A stretch of 64,000 bases of DNA from Candidatus Omnitrophota bacterium. GTDB taxonomy: Bacteria > Omnitrophota > Gorgyraeia > Zapsychrales > JANLHA01. Numbering within the stretch: position 1 is the first letter of the stretch; each line of letters opens with the position of its first letter. The position numbers and the translations under genes were made by a program. The notes below the pieces were generated by a model that had not been told where the DNA came from, did not search any database, and saw nothing but the letters and a program-made list of their open reading frames with translations. The stretch lies in contig OY759724.1 of assembly GCA_963662715.1 (NCBI GenBank), positions 1,178,662-1,242,661 of the forward strand. The letters are read 5' to 3'. This document shows, one piece after another, positions 9,001-48,000 of this stretch.

Positions 9001-12000
9001 GTCTGATCAGAAACGCCACCTTGGCTCTCTCCTGTTCCGTGAAGATGCCTAACTGCTCGAGAAGTTTATCAACAATGCGGGCGCTGTTAAGCGGATGTGA
9101 CACTTTCTTTCTGATATTTTCATCAAAAGGCGCTTTAAGTTTTTGGACTTTCAATCCCGGCAGATAACGTTCAATGTCATGCCCCATAGCTGCTATCTGC
9201 AAACTGAGATCAGCTTGCGGCTTGATTTTCCTCGCCCATTCTAAGACTTCATCGAAATGACGGAAATCGGTCTGCGCTGTATACTCGTCTTCCGGATCGA
9301 TTTCCCGGTATATCCGCAGGATGAGTTCGCGGATATAACCAAACCGTTTTTCAGATTCAGAAGCGCTTGAGATCCGGTCCCGCTTTATCGCCTTTTGGAT
9401 TTCTGTTACGATCCCGCGGACTTTTTCCGGCAAGAGAACCGGTCTCGTGCTGACGAGTTGTATTTGCCGCTCAGCCTCAAGCATAGCATCCCGGTCTTCC
9501 GTTTCTTTTTCCTGCACCGGCGATGATGAATCTCGTTCCGTGGCATCTAAGATAACCTGCGCTACTGAAAGCAGGTTGGATTGTGCCGTTTTATCTTCTA
9601 TCGCGTTTTCCTTGAAGAACTGAACAACGTGCGGACTGGTGAGTTTGACCTTTTCCGTTAAATGATAACTTCGGAACGAATAGTAAGTAAGATAATCTTG
9701 GATTTCCTGACGGATATCATCATCACTGGCTGTCTGCTGGCGTATCTGGGCAACCATGTTCCGGGCTAATTGTATTTCGTCCTGAATCGGGGAAGAAGGA
9801 TCACGTGGGCTTTGCTTCCTGTCCCTTTCCTGCCATTCATAGAAGGTAACATGATTGATGCCCCAGTTGTTCAGGTAGCGCAACACACGCTGCCGCGGGG
9901 CATGCGTCCGGACCTGCAGGAGGTCTATCACTTCTTCATACAGTTTCACGTCTCCGCCCTTCACCGCCTCTACCACCAAGTCCCGGTTCTCTTCAAATAT
10001 CTTCCGCTCCTGCTCATTCACGATAACGCTGTCCCTCGCCGGCATCAGTTCTTCCGTCGGCTTCAGATGCCGTTCCACAGCGTTGATCACAGGCTTAAGC
10101 TCCCCTTCCGACACCTCGCTCACTTCCGCCACCGTCAGGGCTGACAGCTGCGCCAATCGCGGAACCGTCACGTTAATCCCTTCCTTCTTCAGCCGGATAT
10201 ACGCCGCTATGATACTCTGGGCTTTCGCCGACAATCCTATCGCGTCCCCGTAATACGCCAGGTCCTTCGCCGTCCTGATCGCCTTCTCTGCCACCAGCTC
10301 CTGCAGCACGTCCGCCTTCCTGATCCTTCTTTCCACCGGGCTCGAGCTCAGGTCCATCCGGGAAACCGGAAGTTCTTCACTCGAGAGTTCGACCATCAGG
10401 TCCCAGAAGTCCGGCATGATCCCTTCATAATCCGGATGGTCTGTCTGCAGCGTCTCATACGCCTCTTCCCCGATCTCCCGGAAATCCTTCATATCCTCCG
10501 CATCCAAACGGTTCACGTCAAACCATCTCTGACCTATGTACCCCCGGCTCTTCACGTCATAGCCCAGGATCCCCGCCAAGGTAATCTTCGCCTCTCGCGC
10601 CTTCTTCTCCCCGCGCGGGTCCGCGTTCCACATCCGGCTCAATAACTCTCCGCTCTCCAGCACGCTCTTCGCGTCCTTCGGCGTCAACAATGTCAGATAC
10701 AACCCTTCATTCCCTTCAAAATATTCATGCAGTTTCCTCGCATACTCCCCTTCCTTCGTCTGCGCCTTCCTCTCCGCTTCCGTGTACGAATAGTGCAGGT
10801 GCACATACCCCAGCTCCTGATTCGCCTGCTGGTTCGCAAACATCTGGTTCGCCACATACAGCGGCGACGGATACGCATGCCGCGGCGTCCCAAACAGCTC
10901 GATGTTGATCGGCGCCCGCAGATACTTCACATCCGCCAGCTTCGGCTCCGGCTTGTAATACACGCTTCGTCTGAACATCGTCTCGATCGGCGTTGTCCGC
11001 ACCTTATCCCACAGCTCCTCATCCGTGATCCCGCCCTCCGGTACATTCAACGCCTTGCGCCAGTACAACGCATTTGTTGGCTCATCATACAGGTAATCCA
11101 CAACACTCCGACCTTCCGGCAGCACCAGCTGATGCGTCGGAATCCAGATATACCGACTCGCACTGCTCCGCTCATCAAACGTGAACCGCACCGATGACTG
11201 CAGCTGCAGCCCCAGCTCTTCCCTGCGCTCTTCTCCGAAACCTCTTTCTTTCAACCCGGCATCCGTATAGGTCTTCAGGCCCGGGAACGCGAACGTCCAG
11301 CCCTTGTACCACCAATCCAGCGGCTTGACATCCATCCCCAGGATATGCGGCATGATAAAATGCGTGAACTGGTCACCCTTCTTTTTGGCGATGATATACG
11401 CCCCGAACTGGATCGATTTGGCAAATCCTTTCACCTTGCGGCTGAACACTTCTTCGATCTCATTGAGCCGGTGCGGCCCGTTCCACGGCCGCGGACTAGT
11501 CTCCCTCTCTTCAAGCGGCGAAGAGCCCGATTCTTCACTGCCTCTTTCGATCTGGCCCTGGCTCTCTGCGGACGTCTGACCTTCTTCTTTCTCTAACAGC
11601 CGCCGTGCTTCTTCACTAATCGTAACGGTATCCGTTAATTTTTCTTCCGAACCGGCCTTGGTTTTCTTCCTGGACGATTTCTGATCCTGCTGCGGCCGGC
11701 GGTTATTCTCAGACTTCACAATTGGATGTATCGGCTCAACTTTACGCTCGACCTTTTTCACCGGGCTGGATGTCGCTGAATAATCCTTGATTTGTTCACT
11801 TCCGTAAGATTGATACTCTTCAAAACTAAGCGGTGAAGAGGACATCACTGTCACAGCCCCAACGTTTGATGAAATCTCTGCTGTCCGGCTTTGTGTTTGC
11901 TTCCAGGCCAAATATTCTTCCGGTGTCAGAGGTGAAGATGAGACCATCGTCACCGCGCCCACCGGAGAAGAGACCTTTTCGGCAGCCTGGGCCTGTTTCC

Positions 12001-15000: not shown

Positions 15001-18000
15001 CTTCTGCCTGCTCAAACAACTCAACAACCGGCTCCGGAGCTGCTTCAACCCGGACCACTCTCATATCAACCTTGCCCGATTTGTACACCCGTATATCGAC
15101 GATCATCTCCGATTTGTCCTTCATCTCGATCCGCACTCTCTTCGCCTTCGGGGCATTATGGTAAATCGCCCACACCCGGCCGGCCTTCATCGCGTCAAAA
15201 TCATCCTGAGGATATCTGTTCCTCAGCCAGTCCCTCATATCTTCCGTGCGGGTTAACGTCATCTCATAACCCTGCATCCAGACAGCATCAATCTCTGCCA
15301 TACGAAGGTCCTTGCCCAACCGTGCTTTATAAGCCGCCTGCAGTTGATCAAACTTCTCTATGACAGCCGTGACAATCTCGTCGCGCACCGGGCCAAACGC
15401 CATCACTCTGCTTCGGATATTCTTGCGGATTTGTCCCTTCGTCGGCCCGAACAGGCTCAGCTGATCTTCATCCTCTTCACCCTTCGCTATCGGGCTGGAG
15501 GAACCTGAAGAAGCTTTCTGCTGCTTAATATTCTCTTTTAAGAATTCTCTTATAATTCGTCGTGTTTGCTCATAAAAGACGACATTGGCGTGCGGATTCT
15601 CTCCTTCTTTAGGTAATATGATATATTCCTCTGGATTACCCAATCCCCGTTTAAAGCCCTCAATAAATTCTTTTAAGGCGCGACCGGGTTCCTTATTTTC
15701 CAAGTCCGGAGAATGTATATCCTCTTCGACCATAATAGTCATCTTAGGACCTAAATAATCTCTCAAGGCATCAACTGTCTTCTCGCTGTATAAGTCTCGC
15801 ATCAATTCCCCGTAAGGATTGTTATCCTTCATTAAGGCATACCGGCCGCCGGAAAAGATATTACTGAAGAATGGATAGAACGGTAATAAATCAAAGCCCC
15901 TCTGTCGGCCGGCCAGTTCGGATCCAGCCAACGGCGTAGCAATCTCGAGGAAAGAGACGCCTTTGAACAAAGAGTGTCCTCTGTCTTTGTCGGTCTTAGC
16001 CGCCAACCTGAAGATAGTCCCGCCATTGGAATGCGTGACAACTCCCCCAAGGCGGGCCGCAGGATTTCTTAACTGAAATTCCGTCCATTTTTCCGATAAT
16101 TTTTGCATATTTTCTTTTACCGGCAGGAAGTAATCATAAAGGAAGAAGGCAATATTATATTTTCTTCTGAGCTCTTTGAAAGAAAGGGCAAAGGTATTAA
16201 ACGCGCCCCGGCCATTGCCGTGGATAAAGAGGATCACCGGCCTGTTATCCACGGTTTCAAGGGTGTGGATATCGGACAGCCCTTCCAAAATACGCATAAT
16301 TTCCTGTGATCTCGCATCATTCTTAGGCAATGTTTCTTTTAAAATCCGGGCAATATGGCCAATGACAATATCTTTACGTTCTGAAATTTCTATGTTTATT
16401 TGATTTAAGGCATCCTCGAAACCGGAACCCGATGTCGCCTTGTTGCTATCTTTAATCGCTTTTTCTAATGCGTTCATAAGCGGTGCAATAATTCCTTCGA
16501 ACCCGATTTTAATTTGGCCATTTTCTGATAACGCTTCGCCTTCTTCCTTTAATAAACCTTCATTCTTTACAAGTGTTGCGAATGCTTTCTCTGGATTCCG
16601 GGCTAATGCCATCATCGTTGCCAACGCAATGATGAATTCCCGGCGAGTTATAGTTACCGGGGAGGAACTGGAAATATCTTTTCCGACCCCGGTCTCCACC
16701 TCTTCCTTCATCATATGGACAGTTCTTTGATTCTCTCCTCTGCGCTTAGAGCTTGATGCCGGTTTCCTGGCGATGACATATTCATGCTTATCGCTACGAA
16801 ACGCCACTTCTTCATCCTTAAAACCCTTCTGTTTCATGACAGTAACGAGCTTAGCGCCCATCAACCCGGGCGCTTGTCCTTTCAAGAAATCAGTAGTTGC
16901 TTTAACTATAATTATTCCATCAGCCTGCAGCACGAAATAAGATTGCTCAATAATTTTCTCTAAAACATCAACAAAGAAGAATGGATTAATCAACTCACCC
17001 TCTCCAGCGGTGGCTAAAGCCTCACCGTATCTACTGATTCGTGCGTCCCTAAGGACATATAACAGACTGTCATTATGGACAACGACTCCCAGGGTTCCTC
17101 CGTTAAATTCAGCTGACAAATCTGTCGCGTCGCCATAGACTTGCGTGAGCACTGCCTTCTCCTCTATGTCGACTTTCTTTTGTCGTGCAACATCCAACAT
17201 GAACATCCTCTTAAGACCACCGTCTATTAAGCCTTGGGAAGGATTACGATTTGACGATGCGGCAACATCGATGCCTATCCGGCCTCCTAAATGATATCTA
17301 TGCGCAAGTTTTTCATATATTGTGCGTTCCTCATTAACAACTATCTGAACCGGGGAACTGGCCGGGTCATCATCAATTTCAGGACGATCCATCCTTGAAT
17401 GCACTCTGAATGCCGTCAGCATCGCTTCCGCCTGTTCCAGCGTCGCTGCGCCGAACCGGATCGCATTGATGCCGGCCATGCCGATCTTTTCGTTTTCTAA
17501 GAGTCCGAAGAACACATCCTGGACCTCTGGAGTCATTCGGCGGGTTGCTCTGCTTAAGACATACTTCACTAACCTGCGGACGCTTTCTTCTGCCTGTTCA
17601 TATCCGGTCTCCCTGGCATATCCTATCAGGAAGTCGCCCACATAATACTGATACCGGCGGTACTGCTGGAACACCACCACGTTCACCAGCGCCTTTAACG
17701 CCAGCTCAAGAGCTCCCTTCTGCTTGCTGAAATCGTTCTCCCTAAGGAACCCGGTCACCTCTTTTATCAACTCTTCCGCTTCACTTGACCGTTCAACCTG
17801 TTGGCGGCCATACGCGCTCTCCATCCGGTATCCTTTCGATACAAACCGATCGGCCGGAGTGAACAGGTCCATCTCAGATTCCAGGGCCGCGTCCACCCGG
17901 ACCACTCTCATATCCACCCTGCCTGACTTGAACACCCGCACATCCACGACCATCCGGGACCGGTCTTCCGTGTCGATCCGCAATCTCTTCGCCTTCGGGG

Positions 18001-27000: not shown

Positions 27001-30000
27001 CCGCTCCGATCACAATGTCATTCTCTTTCAATCCTAACCGGGCACGGAAATCACTATTAAAACTGTCTAATTCCGGAATGCCGGAGGCGAAGTTCCAGAC
27101 ATTCGGAACAATATGGTTTTGCTGCACAACGCGTTCAACGTGTTTGATCAGTTGTTCCGACAATTGGTCCTTCCTGGCAGTCTTGTAAATCTTGGCCATG
27201 TTTGTCCAGCGGTCGATCAGCATCTTTCGGGCAATCGGATTGATAAAGACCTGAATCACATTATCACCGTAAAGCGGGAAGGCCGTGTCCAGATAATCGC
27301 CAATAACGTCATTCAAACGGTTTTCCGGCTGATATCTCCGGCGTTCAAACCAGAAATCATGATTATGGTTAACAAAAAGGATGTCTTTTCTCTTGGCCGC
27401 AAGCTTGGCTGTTGCCACGCCTAACGGGATCTGCATCGGGATCGTATTGGCATTTTCAATCACCACCATGGATAATTGGTTGCGGTCAATCCATTTCTCC
27501 ATGGCTGCCGCGATACGGTCGGAATAAGCTTCCACCAGTTCGGCCACAACCAGGTTGATCTTCTGGCGGATCAGGCGGAGGACTTTCTTGTTCTGAACAG
27601 TTTGTGTGTTTGCCTTAAGGTCACCCTGCTTCTCTATAACATCAATGGCCTGCAGGATATCTTCTTTTTCACCCGACGCGAACAGATATTTCTCATTTTC
27701 AAGCACGTATTCAAGATCCGCTTTAACCTCGTCCATTGTTCCGAAATTGGCAAAGCTCAATCTTGTAATAATTAAATTAATCTTATTTTCATAAATGATA
27801 TCCGGGTTAACGGAATAGTCGATATCCTTAATCCAGGAATCCCCTCCGCCTATATAGGCATAAACACTCTTATGCATTTCCAGAAGAACATCGATCCACT
27901 TCTTGGTCTCTAAGGACACCCCGTCAAGGTTCCCCATGCGGTGTAACACAAAACCGACGCGGTCATGGGAGGCTGGACCAGCTGACTGTGTCACCGGACT
28001 TGAGCCAGAACCTTCTTTATCAGAAGAGACCCTATAAGCTCTCCATTCATGCCGCTTCAGGTTCCGCCAGGCATTGGTTGGTTCTATTCCTTCAGCGGAA
28101 ACGGATAAAGCATAACCCTGTTGCTCAAGATGCTGTAACTGGGTTAAGGTTCTTTCCTGCTCAACGCGTCTCTTGGCTTCATCAAAGGCGAACCAGCCGA
28201 CCAGGAGCGTCGCTCCCTCGCGCAGCATGTCACCGGCCTTCCGGACCATCTGTTTCTTAACAGCGTCAGACAACCCGGGATAAGACAGCACTGACATCAT
28301 GATCACCACATCGATCGAATCCCGTTCGATCTGCGCGTGTTCAAATAACGCACGGTCAATGGTCGGAACTTCAATACGGTATCCCTTTGCAAGGCTCTGT
28401 TGTGAAGCGAACGTCCTCCAGGTCTTGTTGACTTTTTTGTCCGGTTCATAAATAACAAGCTGTGCACCGGCAGACAGGAACATATGCTCCCACGGAACCC
28501 AGAATGTCTCGACATGATGCGCTCCCTTCAAGCTGATCGCATAATCACCCGGCCCCACAGAAACAACCCGGCTTTCCGGACCGATATTCAACTCTGTCAC
28601 CAGTCTTCTCGCCTGCTCGATATGAATCAAGCGGCTGTCATCTTCTTCCTCGTTCTTTACCGGAGAAGAGGTAACCAGCACTCCCGGCACAACCAGCGCA
28701 GCAACACCTGTCGCTTTGCCGTGCCCGGCCGGGAGCAAAACGGATAGAATCACACGTCCAGACACACCCCTGAGTGATACACTTCGATCCTTCTCAAAGA
28801 TGTTCCTTAAGACACTCTCTTCACTGTAAGCGATACGGCTTGTATTCCTGTCCGCTGTCATGCGGAAGACTTGCGCAACAACCTCTGTTAAGACGGCATA
28901 CCATAACGGCTGCGGAGGACTTAAGCCGGTATGCATATAGTTCTTCCCGGAAGCCTTTACGGCTTCGAACATGTCCTTAAAGCGTCCCGCCAACATGCCG
29001 TAATCCAGGCTCGGAACGGCTGAGAGGAGCCCTGTCAGCAGGCGGCTGTAATCTATGAAAGCCAGTCCTTTGGGCAGGATATCGGTTGATGTTGTCACCG
29101 GAACAAACGGCTGGCCTTGCGGTGTTGAGCGGGCGGTCCGTTTCTGATTGATCGGTTGAACCGGAGCCTGCATCAGCTGCGGCCAAACAGCCGGAGATAT
29201 CCAGGTCGGGACCAGAGGCATGATATCTTCTAACGGGATTTCGATAACCGTCGGCAAGGCCGGCTGGTTATGGAGTTCTAAAATCGGCGAGGAAGCCGCG
29301 CCATCATCGGCTTTCTTTTCTGCCCCTTCAGTTGATCTTTTCGCTTCGGTCTCTTCATACAACCTGCGGGCTTCCTCACTGATTGTCACTTTATCCTGTA
29401 TAGGCTCTATCTTCCGGCTCTTCTTGTCTTTTCGCTGCTGATCCTCTCGCTGTTTACGGTCTTTGTCCGTTCTGACGGTCTTATGCACCGGCTCGACTTT
29501 ACGCTCAACCTTTTCAACCGGGCTGCTGGAATCTGCTTTATTTTCGCTGTCCAGATCAGCTTCCCGTAATTCATAAAAGGTGTCAGGATTGATGCCCCAG
29601 TTGTTCAGGTAGCGCAACACACGCTGCCGCGGGGCATGCGTCCGGACCTGCAGGAGGTCTATCACTTCTTCATACAGTTTCACTTCTCCGCCCTTCACCG
29701 CCTCTACCACCAAGTCCCGGTTCTCTTCAAATATCTTCCGCTCCTGCTCATTCACGATAACGCTGTCCCTCACCGGCATCAGTTCTTCCGTCGGCTTCAG
29801 ATGCCGTTCCACAGCGTTGATCACAGGCTTAAGCTCCCCTTCCGACACCTCGCTCACTTCCGCCACCGTCAGGGCTGACAGCTGCGCCAATCGCGGAACC
29901 GTCACGTTAATCCCTTCCTTCTTCAGCCGGATATACGCCGCTATGATACTCTGGGCTTTCGCCGACAATCCTATCGCGTCCCCGTAATACGCCAGGTCCT

Positions 30001-33000
30001 TCGCCGTCCTGATCGCGTTCTCTTCCACCAGCTCCTGCAGCACGTCCGCCTTCCTGATCCTTCTTTCCACCGGGCTCGAGCTCAGGTCCATCCGGGAAAC
30101 CGGAAGTTCTTCACTCGAGAGTTCGACCATCAGGTCCCAGAAGTCCGGCATGATCCCTTCATAATCCGGATGGTCTGTCTGCAGCGTCTCATACGCCTCT
30201 TCCCCGATCTCCCGGAAATCCTTCATATCCTCCGCATCCAAACGGTTCACGTCAAACCATCTCTGACCTATGTACCCCCGGCTCTTCACGTCATAGCCCA
30301 GGATCCCCGCCAAGGTGATCTTCGCCTCTCGCGCCTTCTTCTCCCCGCGCGGATCCGCGTTCCACATCCGGCTCAATAACTCTCCGCTCTCCAGCACGCT
30401 CTTCGCGTCCTTCGGCGTCAGCAATGTCAGATACAGCCCTTCATTCCCTTCAAAATATTCATGCAGTTTCCTCGCATACTCCCCTTCCTTCGTCTGCGCC
30501 TTCCGCTCTGCTTTCGTGTACGAATAGTGCAGGTGCACATACCCCAGCTCCTGATTCGCCTGCTGGTTCGCAAACATCTGGTTCGCCACATACAGCGGCG
30601 ACGGATACGCATGCCGCGGCGTCCCAAACAGCTCAATATTGATCGGCGCCCGCAGATACTTCACATCCGCCAGCTTCGGCTCCGGCTTGTAATACACGCT
30701 TCGTCTGAACATCGTCTCGATCGGCGTTGTCCGCACCTTATCCCACAGCTCCTCATCCGTGATCCCGCCCTCCGGTACATTCAACGCCTTGCGCCAGTAC
30801 AACGCATTTGTTGGCTCATCATACAGGTAATCCACAACACTCCGACCTTCCGGCAGCACCAGCTGATGCGTCGGAATCCAGATATACCGGCTCGCACTGC
30901 TCCGCTCATCAAACGTGAACCGCACCGATGACTGCAGCTGCAGCCCCAGCTCTTCCCTGCGCTCTTCTCCGAAACCTCTTTCTTTCAACCCGGCATCCGT
31001 ATAGGTCTTCAGGCCCGGGAACGCGAACGTCCAGCCCTTGTACCACCAATCCAGCGGCTTGACATCCATCCCCAGGATATGCGGCATGATAAAATGCGTG
31101 AACTGGTCACCCTTCTTTTTGGCGATGATATACGCCCCGAACTGGATCGGTTTGGCAAATCCTTTCACCTTGCGGCTGAACACTTCTTCGATCTCATTGA
31201 GCCGGTGCGGCCCGTTCCACGGCCGCGGACTAGTCTCCCTCTCTTCGATCGGCGAAGAAGTATGATTGTTCATCAAACTCTCTTGGAAGATCGGATTGAT
31301 CCTCATCAGTTCTGCCCTAACCGCTTGATGCTTCATCTTAAACGGTATCTGCAGTAAGATATCAATAAAATCAGGTCTCAGAAAATATTGCCAAACGGCC
31401 GAATGATACTTCCCGGGGCTTTCATGAATTTGCAGGATAAAATCCCTCCAAGGAACAAATTGCATGCCGTTGACTTCTGCCGTTTCCACCCCTCTATTCA
31501 GCAGGGCTTCCTCTTCTTCAGTGATAATGTAAGAATATAAGAATGAGGTTTCTCTATTCATTCCTTTTGCCGATTCATAATAGAAAACATCTCCTTCATA
31601 TTTCTGCGTCTGTTCGTATTGACGGCTTCCGATCTTATAGAACAGCTTATAAATCCTGTATAGCCGCAGGAAATCCAACGGCATAACGCCAAGTTCTTCC
31701 TGGAATTCACGCTGAATCGCCTTGATTCCAGCTTCCCCTATCCGGGGATGTCCTGTGACAAACAAGCCTAAACGTCCCTGATAATCCTTTTCTTTGCGCT
31801 CCTGCAGGGCCAGGCGCTGTCCGTCTTCTGTAATGCCGAGGATGTGATCCGTTCGATGATGTGTGCCGTCTTGGTGCATAGACCTTAATGTCTTTGCGAC
31901 GCCCGTGGTTTTCAACCCTGTCGGTTCAAGGACATCAGAAACTTCACCGATAACAGGGCGGAGGGCCAGGATCAGCTTCGTTAAACTGGATGTCCTGATT
32001 CCCAGCTTCCTCGCCAAATGACGCAAAACAACAGCATCCTGTTGACCAAATGCCTGAATAATTTGTCTCTTTAACTCAGCATCCGCCTTGACAGGACTTG
32101 AAATAGACTCTCTATTCAGGGCCAGAGCATCCCGTTTATTATCCGTCATAGCGCTGCTTACGGCTTCTCTTCGATATCCGATATACGCTGCCGGTTCGCC
32201 GTCCACGTTAGACATCTTCAGGGCTTTTCTTAATATCCGGTCCATCTGAGTGGCGGATGTCACCCCGACCTCCCTGATAACCTGAGGTGTTACGCGGACA
32301 ACTCGCCCTCTTTCTCCCTGCGTTTCTCTTTCAACCCATTTCAAGACCTCACGTTCCCGGGCACCCAAAACCTGACCTTCCGGCTTCTTGGCTATCAGCT
32401 TTAACGCGTTCAGTTCAACGCCGTTGGTCACATCTTCCACCAATAAAGCGCCTTCTTCCGGCAGGAGATACAGGACGGTGTTTTGATCCAGCTGCGCTAA
32501 GGCCTCTTCCTTCGTTAAGAGACGGGCATCAGTGTTCCGGTAAATGTTGCCCTTTAATCCGGCTAAAATCACCCGCGCTTCATAATGGCGCAAACCTTCT
32601 TCCGGCTCAATGCCGCGGGCCCATAAGATTTCATTCAATGTCTGCCCTTTCTTCAAGGCATGAATCAGCTCCCGGTGAACAATCCCCTCTGTTCCTTCCC
32701 CAATCACCGAAGCGTCCTTGCGCATGCCAATGTCAGAAAGAGCATTTTCCGGATCATAATTATCACCGAGCACCAGGACCTCCTCAGGCCGGATATCAGA
32801 GAACCGGCGGTCGACATAATCCCATACCCGGGCTTTCGAGAGATGTTGCGCCACCACCCGTAAACGGTATGTGCCGTTGGTCACAACCTCGACAGGCAGG
32901 TCAGCCTCGGCAAAAGCCGTTCTCAGGACGTCGATAGCCATGTCTCTTTGAAGTTCGCTGTCGTAATAAAGGGTGAAAATGCCGTCTTCTCTGTTTCCGA

Positions 33001-36000: not shown

Positions 36001-39000
36001 CATTGACCGGGACAGCCGACATGATGGAAACAGCGCCGCGCGTTGTGCTTTCAAATTTCCGGATTGAGCCGGCCGTGGACCGCGCCTGCTCCGCCAGATA
36101 AGCCCGGTATTCTTCCTCGCTTAACGGTGAGGAAGACATATACGTTAAAGCGCCGACCGGTGAAGAGGTTATCTTAACGGCAGATGTTTCCACGGACTGA
36201 GCCGCTTTCCAGGCTGCATATTCTTCAGCCGTGAGCGGTGAAGAACTCATGAGCGTCGAAGCGCCGACCGGAAAATCTTTTTCCGCGGTTCTTATCACCA
36301 AGTTTGGTTCAATCATCCTTAATGTTGACGGGGACTCATTGACGCGAGATGCGTTCTGTTTCCATTGACCGGCTTTCCGGACGAAAGACTGCTCTAACTC
36401 GGTATATTCTCCGAAGAAGGCCTTAACCATCGCGACAAATTGATTCCAAAGCCTTAACAAGGATTCGAGGAACGAGCCCTCCCGCATGATATCAGCGATA
36501 GAAATAACAACGGTTTCTTTTGTCTCCTCCTCATCTTCCACCGGGACAAATCTCAAAGCCACTTCCGCTTTACCTGTTATGTAAGCTTTTGCCAACGGAA
36601 CTTCTGTGATCGATGAAAGGGACAGTCCCCGTTCAGGGACAGGCCTTGTTAATTCTGTTGTATTCTTTTCCAGCGGGCTGGAAGAATCGTTTCTTTGATT
36701 CCGCTCAATAGAGATAGGATCGTCAAGGCCAAATCTATTGAGCATTTGGGATGCCATACGATCACGATATATAGAATTCTTCTGGGCTCTTCGATGCAAT
36801 TTAAATAACAGGATAAATGTACCCAATAATGCTAATATGCCTGGGATCTCAAACATCAACCTTGTATACTGTCCAGAAAAATCAATCTGCTTCAAATCTA
36901 TATCGTATTCTCGAGCAACTTGCTGTGCTGATTCTTCAACCGTCTTCCCTTCAAAGATATTTCTTATAAATTTCCACCCACTCCCTTCCTCCAACTGCTC
37001 AAACTGAATGGCAATCACGGCCCTTTGATAGCCAGTTTCTCTCGGGGTTCCTTGTAAATCTTCTGAAATAATTCGTAGTAATTGATTATAAATTGACTCG
37101 TCAATACCCAATTCAAAATGCCGCAAATAATCTATAGCATAAACAATTTTGTGTTCCACAAATCCGAGACCTCTTGACAGAGGATACAGATTGTGTGCTG
37201 TCTCATGGGCAACCAAAGCCCTGAAAGCTTGCTCCGAAGGAAGATCTTTCTGTCTTAAGAAACCGATGTGATTGTCATTACCATGCCCGTGCGTCACAAA
37301 ATTCTTTGCTATAGGAGATGTTATCTCATGAACCCTATCCCTTTGCTCTTCAGATAAGTATGGAGCGACCTTGGATATTAACGATCTCTGTTCTTCAACG
37401 ACTATGGCAGCTTCCTCTCTATCAAAACCTCTGGACACGAGTCCTTCCACAGAAGATGATGTGTCATTGGCAAAGGTTCGGGAGAATCCGAACAACACCA
37501 TGACAAACGTTGATATCATCAACAGCGTCTTCAAAACCTTCTTAATACCAGAAGAAGACAGTTCCCGTTCAGGGACAGGCCTTGTTAATTCCTTTAAGGA
37601 ACTGCCGGTGGTAACCGCATCCCCTGTCTCACCCTTTAACGCAGTTACCACCGCATATGTTCCTTGTCCCTTCACCCTTTCGTTGTTTGTTGATGAAAGG
37701 GACAGTCCCTGTTCGGGGACAGTCCCTGTTAATTCTGTTAATTCCTGATTCTCTATCGGACTGGAAGACGCGTCTCCAATGATTTTTCCGAGTAATTTTC
37801 TTGCATACGCAATTGCCTCGTCCTGGTCAATAAATTCAGGGCTGGTCGCAATCGTAATAATGGAAGCTCTTCTAGCGAGCTGAGCAAAATAATCCACCGC
37901 CACATCTTTTTTCTGAGCACTTAATCCTCTTAAGACATCAAGATCGACATCCAGCACGTTAAAGTCAAGTTCAGCCGCGTCAATATTTGCCCCTTCTTTG
38001 ATCTTATATCTTAGTTCGTCACGGACCATCAAATGGGCTTTACGGTTTTCTGCGTTGTACATAAAATGCCATTCCGTGAAGAAGCCATTTTCCATAAGCG
38101 GAGCGATAAAGCCCTCGATTCCCATGACATCCTGTGAGTGTCGGTCAATTGTCGCTAAATCTAAATCGGTCTTATAGAACAAATCTTCCTGAGACTCGCG
38201 GTACCGCCGGGTCATCTCGGCATCGGCGTGAGCGTCGATGTGCAGAATTTTGTTGGCCTTTGCCTTGATACGTCCTTCCTGAAGCATGAGCCACCAGAAG
38301 GAATAAGCATAATTATGATAATCCATCACCATCACAACACGGTTATCCGGCAGGGTCATAACCACCTTATTTTTCATGCCAATCGTTTCGATGTGTTTGG
38401 CCGGCAAGTTCGGATCTTTCGGACTGCGGTAAATATCCGGCTGAACATCATCGAGGGTGCCGTTAAAGACCCATCCTTCCGCCTGCCATTTCTGGTCCAC
38501 CGGGCTGGAAGATGCTTCCGGTGCTGCCGGCTTCAGGCTTCCTTCAGGTGTGAAGCTGAATTCTGCCGGAATGAAATCAATATCCTTACGGTTCAGATCG
38601 ACCCGGGAAGCATACCGGGCAGCAAAAGACTCCTGCGTCAGGCTCCACAATTCAACCAGTTCCGGATTCGTCCGGAAGAACTCCGGACCGTTAAAGATCA
38701 CTTCTCCCCGGTTGTTATAAAGAATGGCTTTTTCCAGCTTGGAGCGGGATATCGATATCTGTCCTTTGTACATCCTGACGATCTCCGGCTTATCAAAATA
38801 CACATGGTAGAATTCTTTTCTGATATACTCTTCAATCGTGTTTCTGCCGCCCCGGATGACTTTGGCCGGGATCTTGTTATATTCATCCGTAAAGACAACA
38901 TACTTGGTGTTTTCCTGGCCGTCGGCAAGGTTAATAATGACGTCCTTGGCAAAGAGGAACCCGAATCTGTCCTGTGATGACAATTGTTTGAGCCCTCTCA

Positions 39001-45000: not shown

Positions 45001-48000
45001 AGACTTCTTTATATTTGCTTACTAAGGCTTCTTGGGAAGCGTCCGGGCCTAAAGCTCTTAATGCGTTCTTCACCCTCTGGAACAAGACATCATGTGATTT
45101 CAGCTCCAGTCCGGTTAAAGACATATACAACTGAACTAACTTTCTGAAGTCTACGCTTGATTCCGAACTCATCAGCATATTGATAAATCTTCTCTGTTCC
45201 GTCCCGTCTTTTTTCAATTCAATCTGCCTGAAGGCGTTTACAGCGGCCGGGTTCTTCAAAACCTGACCGGCCACATATCCGGTGTCGCTGGCCTGGGCAA
45301 ACATCATTTCGAACAGGAACTCCTGGGCTCTTTCTGCATAAACATTAGTCTCCTCCTTAATCTCGGCATCTTTTTCATCCCCGCCCTTTAATATCACCAG
45401 GGCCTTTCTCAGGTCTTCACTTAACAACTCTTCTCTTTTCCAAACAAAATTATTAATAAATTCAAGGCGTCGCGATTCCTTTTCGTCTTCTTCCTCGGTA
45501 GCGCTGATCTTTTCCACGGCTTGCTGGAACAATTTAATTGTTTGCTTCAAAATATGATCCACGGCTTCGCTTAAATTATCCTCAATAAATTTCTCGCTGG
45601 ACACCTGATCAGTAACATTTTTCCCTAAATCACCGCGGATCTCTTCAGCCCGCTTGACTTTTTCCTTGGTCCCGGTGAACAAGCCGCTAAAGAAAGATCC
45701 GGCAAAAATACCTGCGCCGGCAAAAGCGAATAAACCGAGGAAGCCGGACGGAAGGAGAGGCAACAGGAACGAACTGATCAGCCACATGCTCACTCCGGCT
45801 CCTGCGAACCAGCCGAAGACCTTGACCTTAGGATTATCTAATCCGCGTCCTGAACCCGAGCCTCCTTTACCGCCGTTCTGAGGATTATCTGATCCTTGTC
45901 CCTGGCTTGAGCCCGAGTCTCCGTTATCGTTGTTCTGAGGAGCCGGCCCGCGGGTATCGTCTCCCGGGAACATCTTTCTTAACTGTCCGCCGATCCAACG
46001 CGGCACGTTGACAATCAAGCCCAGGATCAGGCCAAGGACCGTCAGTGTCGACATGACCAGAGTTCCTGTCATGTAGAGATTCATATGATCTCTTAAGTCC
46101 TGAAGCTTGAACTTGTTCGTCTTCATAAGCGGATAAACGATGATATAAAGCATCAGCGGGATATACGGGTAACCGCCCATAAGCAGGGATAGGCCGACGA
46201 TAACTGCGGTGGTTAAGGCCCATTTCTTGAATCCGATCTTCTTGAAGAACTGCGGATAATGGGCTGTGAAGTGAACCTTGGCCCAGGTCTTGAATCCGAC
46301 TGTTGTCGGAGTTGAACCCGGATTCAGGAGGAACGGCGCAAACATCGAAGCAAAGGCCATCAAGCTCGGGAACAGCGACCATATGGAACCAGGATTCATC
46401 CAGAGGATCGTACCGCTGATGACAAAGAGGATGCTCGGGATGACCCAGCCGTAGCCTAATAAGTTCACCTGTGCGTACAAGTCGCCCTGAGTAAATAATT
46501 TTTTCGAATCAAAGCCCTTCGTCGGTTTAAACGGTACGACAGTGTCGCGGCCTGGCCGACGTCCGGTAGCGATATAATCCGCCCGGTTCACCAAGGCCTT
46601 CTTCACACCGACCGAGAACGCGTTATAAACCAGGGACATGTAGGTGATCGCCAGAAGCGGGAACAGTTTCAGGAACTTCACTGTACCGCGGACCAGACCT
46701 TTCTCCAGAACTGTCTGCAGATAACCGGATGAGGTGATGGCCTGCGATAAGAAGAAGCCGACCAAACCGAAGATAAGCTCGCTCGGGAACCCGGCAAACA
46801 AGCTCATACCGAACAATACGATGGTTAACAGGTATGTGGTATTGGAAATCACGACAAAAGGCTTGCGCAAGAAGTAGCCGATCGAAGCGACGAAGTGGCC
46901 CAGGGAGCGGCTGAAGCCGACGACCTTGGATTTGTTGTGCTGCCGCAGCATATGACCAATGGCCTGTTCAGCGGCACCAGCCCCGAATTTCTCGGAAATA
47001 CCGACCAAACCAACGTAGACCGCTTCACGGCCTTTACCGGCCTGCATCAATTCCGTGTTCGACACTCTTTCACCCATGAGCGTGGCTTTGTAGGCGCCGA
47101 AGATATCTTCATTGACCCACGGAGCGCTGAAGAGACCTAATTGTCTGAACGATCTGCCCCGGACAAAGTCAGGGTGACCGTAATGGTAGCGGATGCCCAT
47201 GAAGTTCAGCACTCTCTGGACCATGGTAACGAACGTATGGTCACCGAAAGCGTGCACCGCACCGGCCGGAGAGAATTCGTCAGTAAAGATATCTTCCGGA
47301 ACACCGACGATCGCGACCTGATCATCCCGGCGGAACTGTTCCATGACGTTCGGAGCCTTAAAGGTTTCTTCAAGGTAAAGATCCTGGTTCATGTCCATGA
47401 CCATGACGATCTGGCCGCGGGTGAAGCGCAGGATATTATTCTGGTTCATCGGTTTACCCTGACCGGCAAACGGATGGCTGTGCAGGCGGATCGGGTTGAG
47501 GCGGACCACGCGGCCGATGGTGTTGCCGTCCCGCTCAAATTTATGCATAACATCCTCACCGTCCTGTACTTCTCCTGCGCGGTACTCAACCAAGGCACCG
47601 GCAAAACCGTTGATCCTATTGTCCGGATTGTGCAGGTAAGCCATTCTCATGGACGGGTATTTCTTCAGGAGCAAGTGAATATCCTGTATCAATAAATGGG
47701 CTTTAGCACTGTCTTCTTGCAGCAAGTCACCGTAAGGCTGGTCACCGGCGACAAACTCAAACTTCTCGTCAACTTTTGCGAGGATCTTTGCTTTGTAATC
47801 ATATGCGTTATGGAGTTTCTCCTGTTGGCCTTCCAGTTCCTTTCTCAATTTTTCAAGTCCGGCGCGGCGCTCAGCCTTGGCTTCCTCATCTTCCGCAGCC
47901 TCTAATTCCTCTTCTGCCGTGGCGATCTTTTCATATTGACTGAATATGTCATTTAGGACTTCTGTTAAGGCAGCCACAGCCTCTATTTCAGCTTTAAGAG

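Follow-up and report, generated by a model that had tools for sequence, protein, structure and literature searches.

Membrane proteases of the families M48 (HtpX, Ste24, Oma1) and M56 (BlaR1, MecR1) carry an HExxH helix in an extramembrane domain beside or between transmembrane (TM) helices; a further ligand is supplied downstream by a later helix, and the active site lies next to the membrane. They are the closest working analogy to the element described here, an HExxH module within a giant gene of a Candidatus Omnitrophota bacterium. The module lies on the minus strand of a 64,000-nucleotide stretch of contig OY759724.1 (the window), at nt 36674-37768, and extends from the SSSP at aa 8745 to the SSSP at aa 9106-9109 of the window protein; all coordinates below refer to the window, and all features to its minus strand. 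Small HExxH domains classed as putative metallopeptidases, DUF4157/eCIS_core and DUF6782, offer a second comparison; DUF4157 is found N-terminally in toxins and in cargo proteins of eCIS. A third, alike in concept only, is the cysteine protease domain (CPD) of MARTX toxins, which sits inside a very large multi-module protein and could release its modules; this protease is activated by inositol hexakisphosphate and cuts after Leu between effector domains. Giant Omnitrophota proteins span 20,000 to 150,000 residues, and the literature leaves open whether they act as single chains or as cut pieces. The preliminary description of the window had proposed, with MARTX as its parallel, that the HExxH motif belongs to a protease that cuts its own giant protein at the SSP[VIL] junctions between modules. 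We favour another account, to which we give about an even chance of being right, namely that the module is an accessory cassette, acquired recently, whose product is a putative zinc hydrolase of an undescribed family, tethered to the membrane and facing the periplasm.

The module is composed, in this order, of linker repeats, a first TM helix (TM1), a conserved core, a second TM helix (TM2) and a basic tail. The core (aa 8851-9038, nt 36887-37450) is defined by phmmer and by an alignment (A2) with three distant homologues, which an exhaustive phmmer search of 1.84 billion cluster representatives brought up: P0001 (2,588 aa, E = 2.5e-7), P0002 (6,842 aa, E = 8.7e-6) and P0003 (988 aa, E = 2.9e-4). 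Each is a singleton cluster, they align at 31-36% identity, and their loci differ in GC content (35% for P0003, 61% for P0002, and 53-54% for the other). Among the four members 23 of the 188 core positions are invariant, including H8932, E8933, H8936, P8940, H8950, Y8954, A8955, L8959, R8960, G8965, E9001 and W9009. The motif itself, HETAH (aa 8932-8936, nt 37193-37207), keeps its H, E and H in all four; its codons lie where the preliminary description had placed them, and the peptides quoted there are all present on the minus strand. Only three of the eight His residues of the window core are conserved, and these are exactly H8932, H8936 and H8950. The family signature reads HExxH-x(7-26)-H-x-[IVL]-x-YA-x-x-[YF]LR ... 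E ... [GA]W-x-[FY]-[LI]-[RK], then a TM helix, the distance from the second motif His to the downstream His varying from 7 to 26 residues across members. A TM helix stands within a few dozen residues C-terminal of the domain in all four proteins, and also N-terminal of it in three. Because distant homologues share both the invariant residues and the TM helix, the HExxH of the window, judged from sequence, is part of a genuine though extremely rare and unclassified domain family, which counts four members in about 15 billion proteins and carries no annotation.

The motif taken by itself would carry little weight. HETAH is the sole HExxH in the window protein, and amino acid composition predicts 0.49 occurrences in 21,333 aa, so that a single motif alone is not significant. 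That figure would suit a chance HExxH without functional meaning, yet the motif and the downstream His are invariant in all three distant homologues and are the only conserved His residues of the eight, which leaves chance with hardly any probability. The family stayed small in further searches: word-indexed homology searches with the module and with the four-sequence profile gave no matches, scans of GTDB genomes and of metagenome contigs gave no additional members, and a local HMM search found no second domain copy in the window protein or in the homologues. Two DNA-pattern matches (L005 and L006) were rejected as members, being a spurious open reading frame (ORF) and an unrelated HExxH protein. 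Among the homologues, P0002 (L007 568-21096) is a polytopic fusion with PfkB, Bac_transf, APH and Cupin_2 domains from an organism at 61% GC, and in its copy of the domain two TM helices are inserted between the N-terminal helices and the one with HExxH.

Two AlphaFold2 (AF2) models were built from four-sequence alignments. The model of a 288-aa piece that includes the TM helices has a mean predicted local distance difference test score (pLDDT) of 72.9 and a predicted template modelling score (pTM) of 0.61; the model of the 188-aa core alone has a mean pLDDT of 76.4, a pTM of 0.75 and ten helices. DSSP assigns helices only to both. As expected for the metallopeptidase-type motif that the preliminary description had suggested, HExxH is helical in the AF2 models, close to the C-terminal end of core helix 73-88 (helix 109-124 in the longer model; block pLDDT about 77-84). 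H8950 (nt 37151-37153; core residue 100), the invariant His that begins H-x-[IVL]-x-Y-A-x-x-[YF]-L-R, follows a low-confidence loop and stands in the opening turn of the helix after it, 96-113. In these models the candidates for a third metal ligand are H8950, 14 residues past the second His, and, as a gluzincin-style alternative, the likewise invariant E9001 (nt 36998-37000), 65 residues past the motif. The predicted helix-loop-helix and the variable loop length fit a three-His site, or a His-His-Glu site with E9001. A zinc ion would be bound by H8932, H8936 and H8950 (or E9001), with E8933 as the general base, and Y8954 and R8960, which follow H8950 by one and about three helical turns, might stabilise the transition state.

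The preliminary description had pointed to M48, M56, SprT and DUF4157 as models for comparison, and membership in any of them finds no support. Pfam-A hmmscan of the window module and all four members (maximum E = 10) returns no M48 (PF01435), M56 (PF05569) or SprT-like (PF10263) match. NCBIfam likewise gives no match to M48, M56 or SprT; its sole match is a weak 'permease prefix' in one member, which we take, unchecked, to reflect the N-terminal RGFSxEQA helix. No solved zincin was matched by Foldseek, and searches against PDB sequences, with the single sequence and with the profile, yield noise only. eCIS_core/DUF4157 (PF13699) scores 12.5 bits (E = 0.18) and 13.6 bits (E = 0.078) against a cut-off of 22 bits, in the window member only, and the aligned stretch stops at HExxH; DUF6782 (PF20573) is matched below threshold in one of the four members (E = 0.053). 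With hhalign, A2 and the Peptidase_MA_2 (PF13485) protein encoded at the locus of P0003 (L001) align over 20 columns around HExxH at a probability of 2.5%. The likeness to M48 and M56 thus concerns the arrangement, while the window domain differs from both in lacking a Pfam or Foldseek match, in its all-helical predicted fold, in its likely third ligand, which is a His at +14 (the spacing varies) in place of the gluzincin Glu, and in its predicted periplasmic rather than cytoplasmic orientation. DUF4157 and DUF6782 resemble it through weak Pfam matches centred on the HExxH helix, and differ in being families without flanking TM helices. The domain plausibly works like a membrane-tethered zincin, yet it fits no described family.

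That HETAH lies between two hydrophobic helices holds. TM1 (VLKTLLMISTFVMVLFGFS, aa 8822-8840, nt 37481-37537) has a 19-residue Kyte-Doolittle mean of 1.96 and corresponds to AF2 helix 2-24 of the 288-aa piece; TM2 (LMFEIPGILALLGTFILLF, aa 9048-9066, nt 36803-36859; hydropathy 2.2) falls within AF2 helix 228-275 and is followed by the basic stretch KLHRRAQKNSIYRDR. By AF2, hydropathy and charge the two helices behave like a hairpin membrane anchor, in agreement with the anchoring role that had been suggested for them. Between aa ~6100 and 21333 no other segment is strongly hydrophobic, and over that range the earlier impression of an otherwise soluble-looking region stands; upstream it fails, for a multi-TM region occupies aa 4380-6090.

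On which side of the membrane does the HExxH domain lie? Flanking charges in the window follow the positive-inside pattern, with a Lys-rich N-side (IKKVLK) before TM1 and HRRAQK...R.R after TM2; the loop side is not basic, and four K/R stand within the 12 residues after TM2 vs two before it. The flanking modules (RelA_SpoT, SAM methyltransferase, NUDIX, Kdo, GT1, GT9 and HATPase_c) use cytoplasmic cofactors, namely ATP, GTP, S-adenosylmethionine (SAM) and nucleoside diphosphate (NDP) sugars, and a cytoplasmic location of these enzyme families is established knowledge. Given the basic flanks and the cytoplasmic-type neighbouring enzymes, the loop of ~205 residues most likely faces the periplasm. 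The gene of P0003 supports an envelope role. It is complete (L001 8594-11560, on a contig of 35% GC), its product has a signal-peptide-like N-terminus, and it is the last gene of an operon resembling those of type II secretion systems and type IV pili (T2SSF, Peptidase_MA_2, T2SSG, T2SSK, PilM, PilN, PilO, TPR), adjoining an STT3 oligosaccharyltransferase gene, on whose far side lies a gene for a PMT_2 glycosyltransferase.

The opposite orientation, with a cytoplasmic, membrane-proximal HExxH loop as in HtpX (M48) and BlaR1 (M56) and the flanking modules outside the cell, would agree with the TMHMM-type predictions of West-Roberts et al., which place most giant-protein domains outside, although the same authors call some of these extracellular localisations unlikely (bioRxiv 10.1101/2023.11.21.568195). 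The weak positive-inside signal of P0001 also leaves room for it. We consider it improbable, for it requires about 12,000 residues of ATP-, GTP-, SAM- and NDP-sugar-dependent enzymes outside the cell, the charge distribution of the window itself favours cytoplasmic flanks, and P0003 has its signal-peptide-like N-terminus and no further TM helix before its domain. With the periplasmic orientation that we prefer, a helical domain of ~190 residues would be held between TM1 and TM2 and loop out to the non-cytoplasmic face, while the flanking array of 15,000 residues of nucleotide- and SAM-dependent enzymes would stay in the cytoplasm. The result would be a juxtamembrane hydrolase that faces the periplasm, probably a peptidase with substrates in the envelope or on the surface of prey, and the TM hairpin would also pin the cytoplasmic enzyme array to the membrane.

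Comparison with the closest orthologue bears on the age of the module. This protein, P0004 (locus L008, contig DAOOLG010000072.1, assembly GCA_035386035.1; 57-59% identity), has a continuous frame on its contig; its residues 457-1651 match window aa 7305-8502 and its residues 1653-1780 match aa 9130-9255. The 627 aa in between (aa 8503-9129, nt 36614-38494) are missing from P0004 at the syntenic site. They comprise the HExxH module and the neighbouring module with its UPF0489 domain (PF12640, aa 8556-8652, nt 38045-38335, E = 2.2e-9 to 3.6e-8). Both break points of the indel coincide with SSP[VIL] junctions, and P0004 keeps SSP junctions. A search reaching about 15 billion proteins brought up no orthologous copy of the module. 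No other 361-aa window of the protein is as low in GC (0.423) or GC3 (0.396) as the HExxH module, and GC3 in the conserved core is 0.367, compared with 0.574 +/- 0.064 protein-wide. This composition points to recent insertion from a lower-GC source, and the cassette would have been gained at an SSP[VIL] module junction, as an addition to the array and not as the processor of its junctions. The SSSP at aa 8497 and that at aa 9106 are both encoded by TCTTCCAGCCCG. Elsewhere, window aa 7066-7304 and P0004 residues 101-456 cannot be aligned, which has the appearance of a second module replacement.

Several points weigh against a periplasmic zinc hydrolase acquired in this way. The predicted fold is all-helical, without the beta-sheet and substrate-binding edge strand typical of zincins; the AF2 model rests on four sequences, and core residues 48-60 and 91-96 have pLDDT values below 50, so a strand before the motif is possible at residues 48-60. 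Similarity to known peptidases, in sequence or fold, is limited to roughly 20 residues at the motif. For P0001, and for the C-terminal TM helix of P0002 and P0003, the flanking charges give an ambiguous positive-inside signal. The orthologue comes from a 5.3-kb contig of a metagenome-assembled genome (MAG), and the module could sit elsewhere in that gene. Some of these points feed the main rival, a non-catalytic ectodomain, in which TM-loop-TM would be an anchor or interaction module and the conserved His and Glu would hold a structural metal or stabilise the fold. An all-helical bundle whose best Foldseek matches are generic or designed helical bundles, the missing beta edge strand of the model and the lack of any peptidase family match would all be natural for such a domain. 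On the other hand, the full H-E-x-x-H is conserved, Glu included, and in zincins this Glu is catalytic and does not bind the metal. The next helix keeps an invariant H...Y.....R at only 31-36% overall identity, and two of the three weak Pfam matches are to HExxH families of the peptidase type. We therefore regard a non-catalytic role as rather unlikely, though it is the alternative to be taken most seriously.

The SSP[VIL] motif is itself real. It occurs 56 times in the window protein against 0.61 expected, V, I or L follows SSP in 56 of 57 instances, and all 56 sites fall within aa 6813-21235 (nt 295-43564), which leaves the first 6,812 residues free of them. The HExxH loop has none, nor has any extracytoplasmic or membrane part. 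The Ser codons at the sites vary, which indicates that the motif is selected at the protein level. A DNA-level signal was considered and rejected: the Ser codons vary, and CCG, used for 88% of the Pro residues at the motif, is simply the codon favoured for Pro overall (75%). Pfam-annotated domains that were compared with the sites each fall between consecutive SSSP sites, and the sites are kept in orthologues of 57% identity. As read from the sequence, SSP[VIL] sites are candidates for joints between modules, or for sites of processing or modification.

Could the HExxH domain cut at these sites, as a maturation protease acting in cis in the manner of MARTX? The strength of the junction motif, its conservation in orthologues and its position at the bounds of both indels and of the internal duplications would give such a protease a substrate, the cleavage of giant Omnitrophota proteins is an open question, and a Pfam scan of all 21,333 aa found no peptidase family. 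As a cutter of the junctions, the domain finds no support. The domain family exists without SSP[VIL] arrays (0, 1 and 0 sites in P0001, P0002 and P0003, vs 56 in the window protein), and the predicted topology puts the enzyme and all 56 sites on opposite sides of the membrane. P0004 has SSP junctions and lacks the module at the syntenic site, no orthologous copy came to light, and the module is compositionally foreign. Moreover the window is only a part of the gene, and the published candidates for self-processing are C39 and S8 domains near the N-termini, the cleavage points of such giant proteins being stated as unknown (bioRxiv 10.1101/2023.11.21.568195; 10.64898/2026.06.07.730766). We judge cis-processing by this domain to be very unlikely. 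The MARTX parallel is left as a conceptual one, since the chemistry proposed here is metal-dependent, the predicted enzyme and sites lie in different compartments, and the homologues carry the domain without arrays of such sites. It is scarcely probable that, despite the topology argument, the domain founds a new family of all-helical zinc peptidases and itself releases modules from the giant polyprotein by cutting SSP[VIL] between the Pro and the V, I or L; if this were true, it would provide the first defined cleavage points and the first processing enzyme for bacterial giant proteins.

Recent internal duplications of entire modules are also seen in the array. One pair, aa 10915-11517 and aa 17493-18098 (nt 29450-31258 and 9707-11524), shares 92-98% identity, and another, aa 15218-15552 and aa 16167-16498, shares 80%. 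SSP[VIL] sites close to their boundaries lie at aa 10915, at aa 15219 and 15548, at aa 16168 and 16494, and at aa 17493. For three of the four copies, start and end are both within a few residues of such a site, and the longer pair has its ends 25-29 residues beyond the nearest one. The giant gene appears, from these repeats, to grow by cassette duplication at SSP[VIL] joints. Two short linker repeats accompany the modules: elements of the form 'VGASTLMSSSPL[ST]xEEYxAY' recur in clusters at aa 6950-7070, 9240-9360 and 17250-17420, and a second, 'ELTRPVPERGLSLSS', flanks the HExxH module and occurs again at aa 16740-16917.

The host of the module is a giant multi-enzyme gene of an Omnitrophota bacterium. 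A single frame runs through nt 2-64000 of the minus strand, 21,333 codons with 0 stops and open at both ends, and every other frame of the 64-kb window contains 510 to 1,325 stops; the window is thus an internal piece of one giant gene. Plus-strand ORFs under the HExxH feature (up to 125 aa) were dismissed as shadow ORFs of the giant frame. Pfam finds an SLT transglycosylase (aa 46-151) and further RelA_SpoT, Methyltransf_28, UPF0489, NUDIX, Kdo transferase with GT1, HATPase_c and GT9 domains. A 1,3-beta-glucan synthase of the fungal and plant type (GT48, PF02364; aa 5386-5731, nt 46808-47845, E = 4.5e-68) is also matched, embedded in a multi-TM stretch of this bacterial giant protein. Cys is very scarce (15 residues, 0.07%), and neither Rfam families nor tRNAs were found in the window. 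The closest database proteins are partial, at 58% identity, and come from 'Candidatus Omnitrophota bacterium' MAGs.

Giant multi-enzyme proteins of this kind are known from Omnitrophota as the 'Archaeovorin' type (West-Roberts et al. 2023, bioRxiv 10.1101/2023.11.21.568195) and as 'multi-enzyme metabolic clusters' (bioRxiv 10.64898/2026.06.07.730766). The window protein shares with the 'Archaeovorin' type a giant ORF, glycosyltransferases, methyltransferases, NUDIX, SLT, TM helices and Omnitrophota origin, and with at least 21,333 codons, this domain content, its TM segments and its Omnitrophota relatives it belongs to the class. Pfam finds no SecA-DEAD domain and no N-terminal C39 or S8 peptidase in the window; the ORF overruns both window ends, and such domains may therefore lie outside it. 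A term search in the text of both papers found no HExxH ectodomain cassette, and the words 'zinc' and 'UPF0489' are not present in that of West-Roberts et al. (bioRxiv 10.1101/2023.11.21.568195).

What is new here is thus a variant of the HExxH metallohydrolase theme, whereas the class of giant genes that carries it is already described, and the novelty is modest. For the processing of giant proteins, our analysis removes one tempting candidate protease and defines it instead as, most likely, a portable TM-ectodomain-TM cassette with a conserved HExxH...H site. The domain family adds a little to the known range of putative metallohydrolases. SSP[VIL], in turn, marks the joints where modules enter the array, drop out of it or are copied, and so offers concrete sites to look for in proteomic data.

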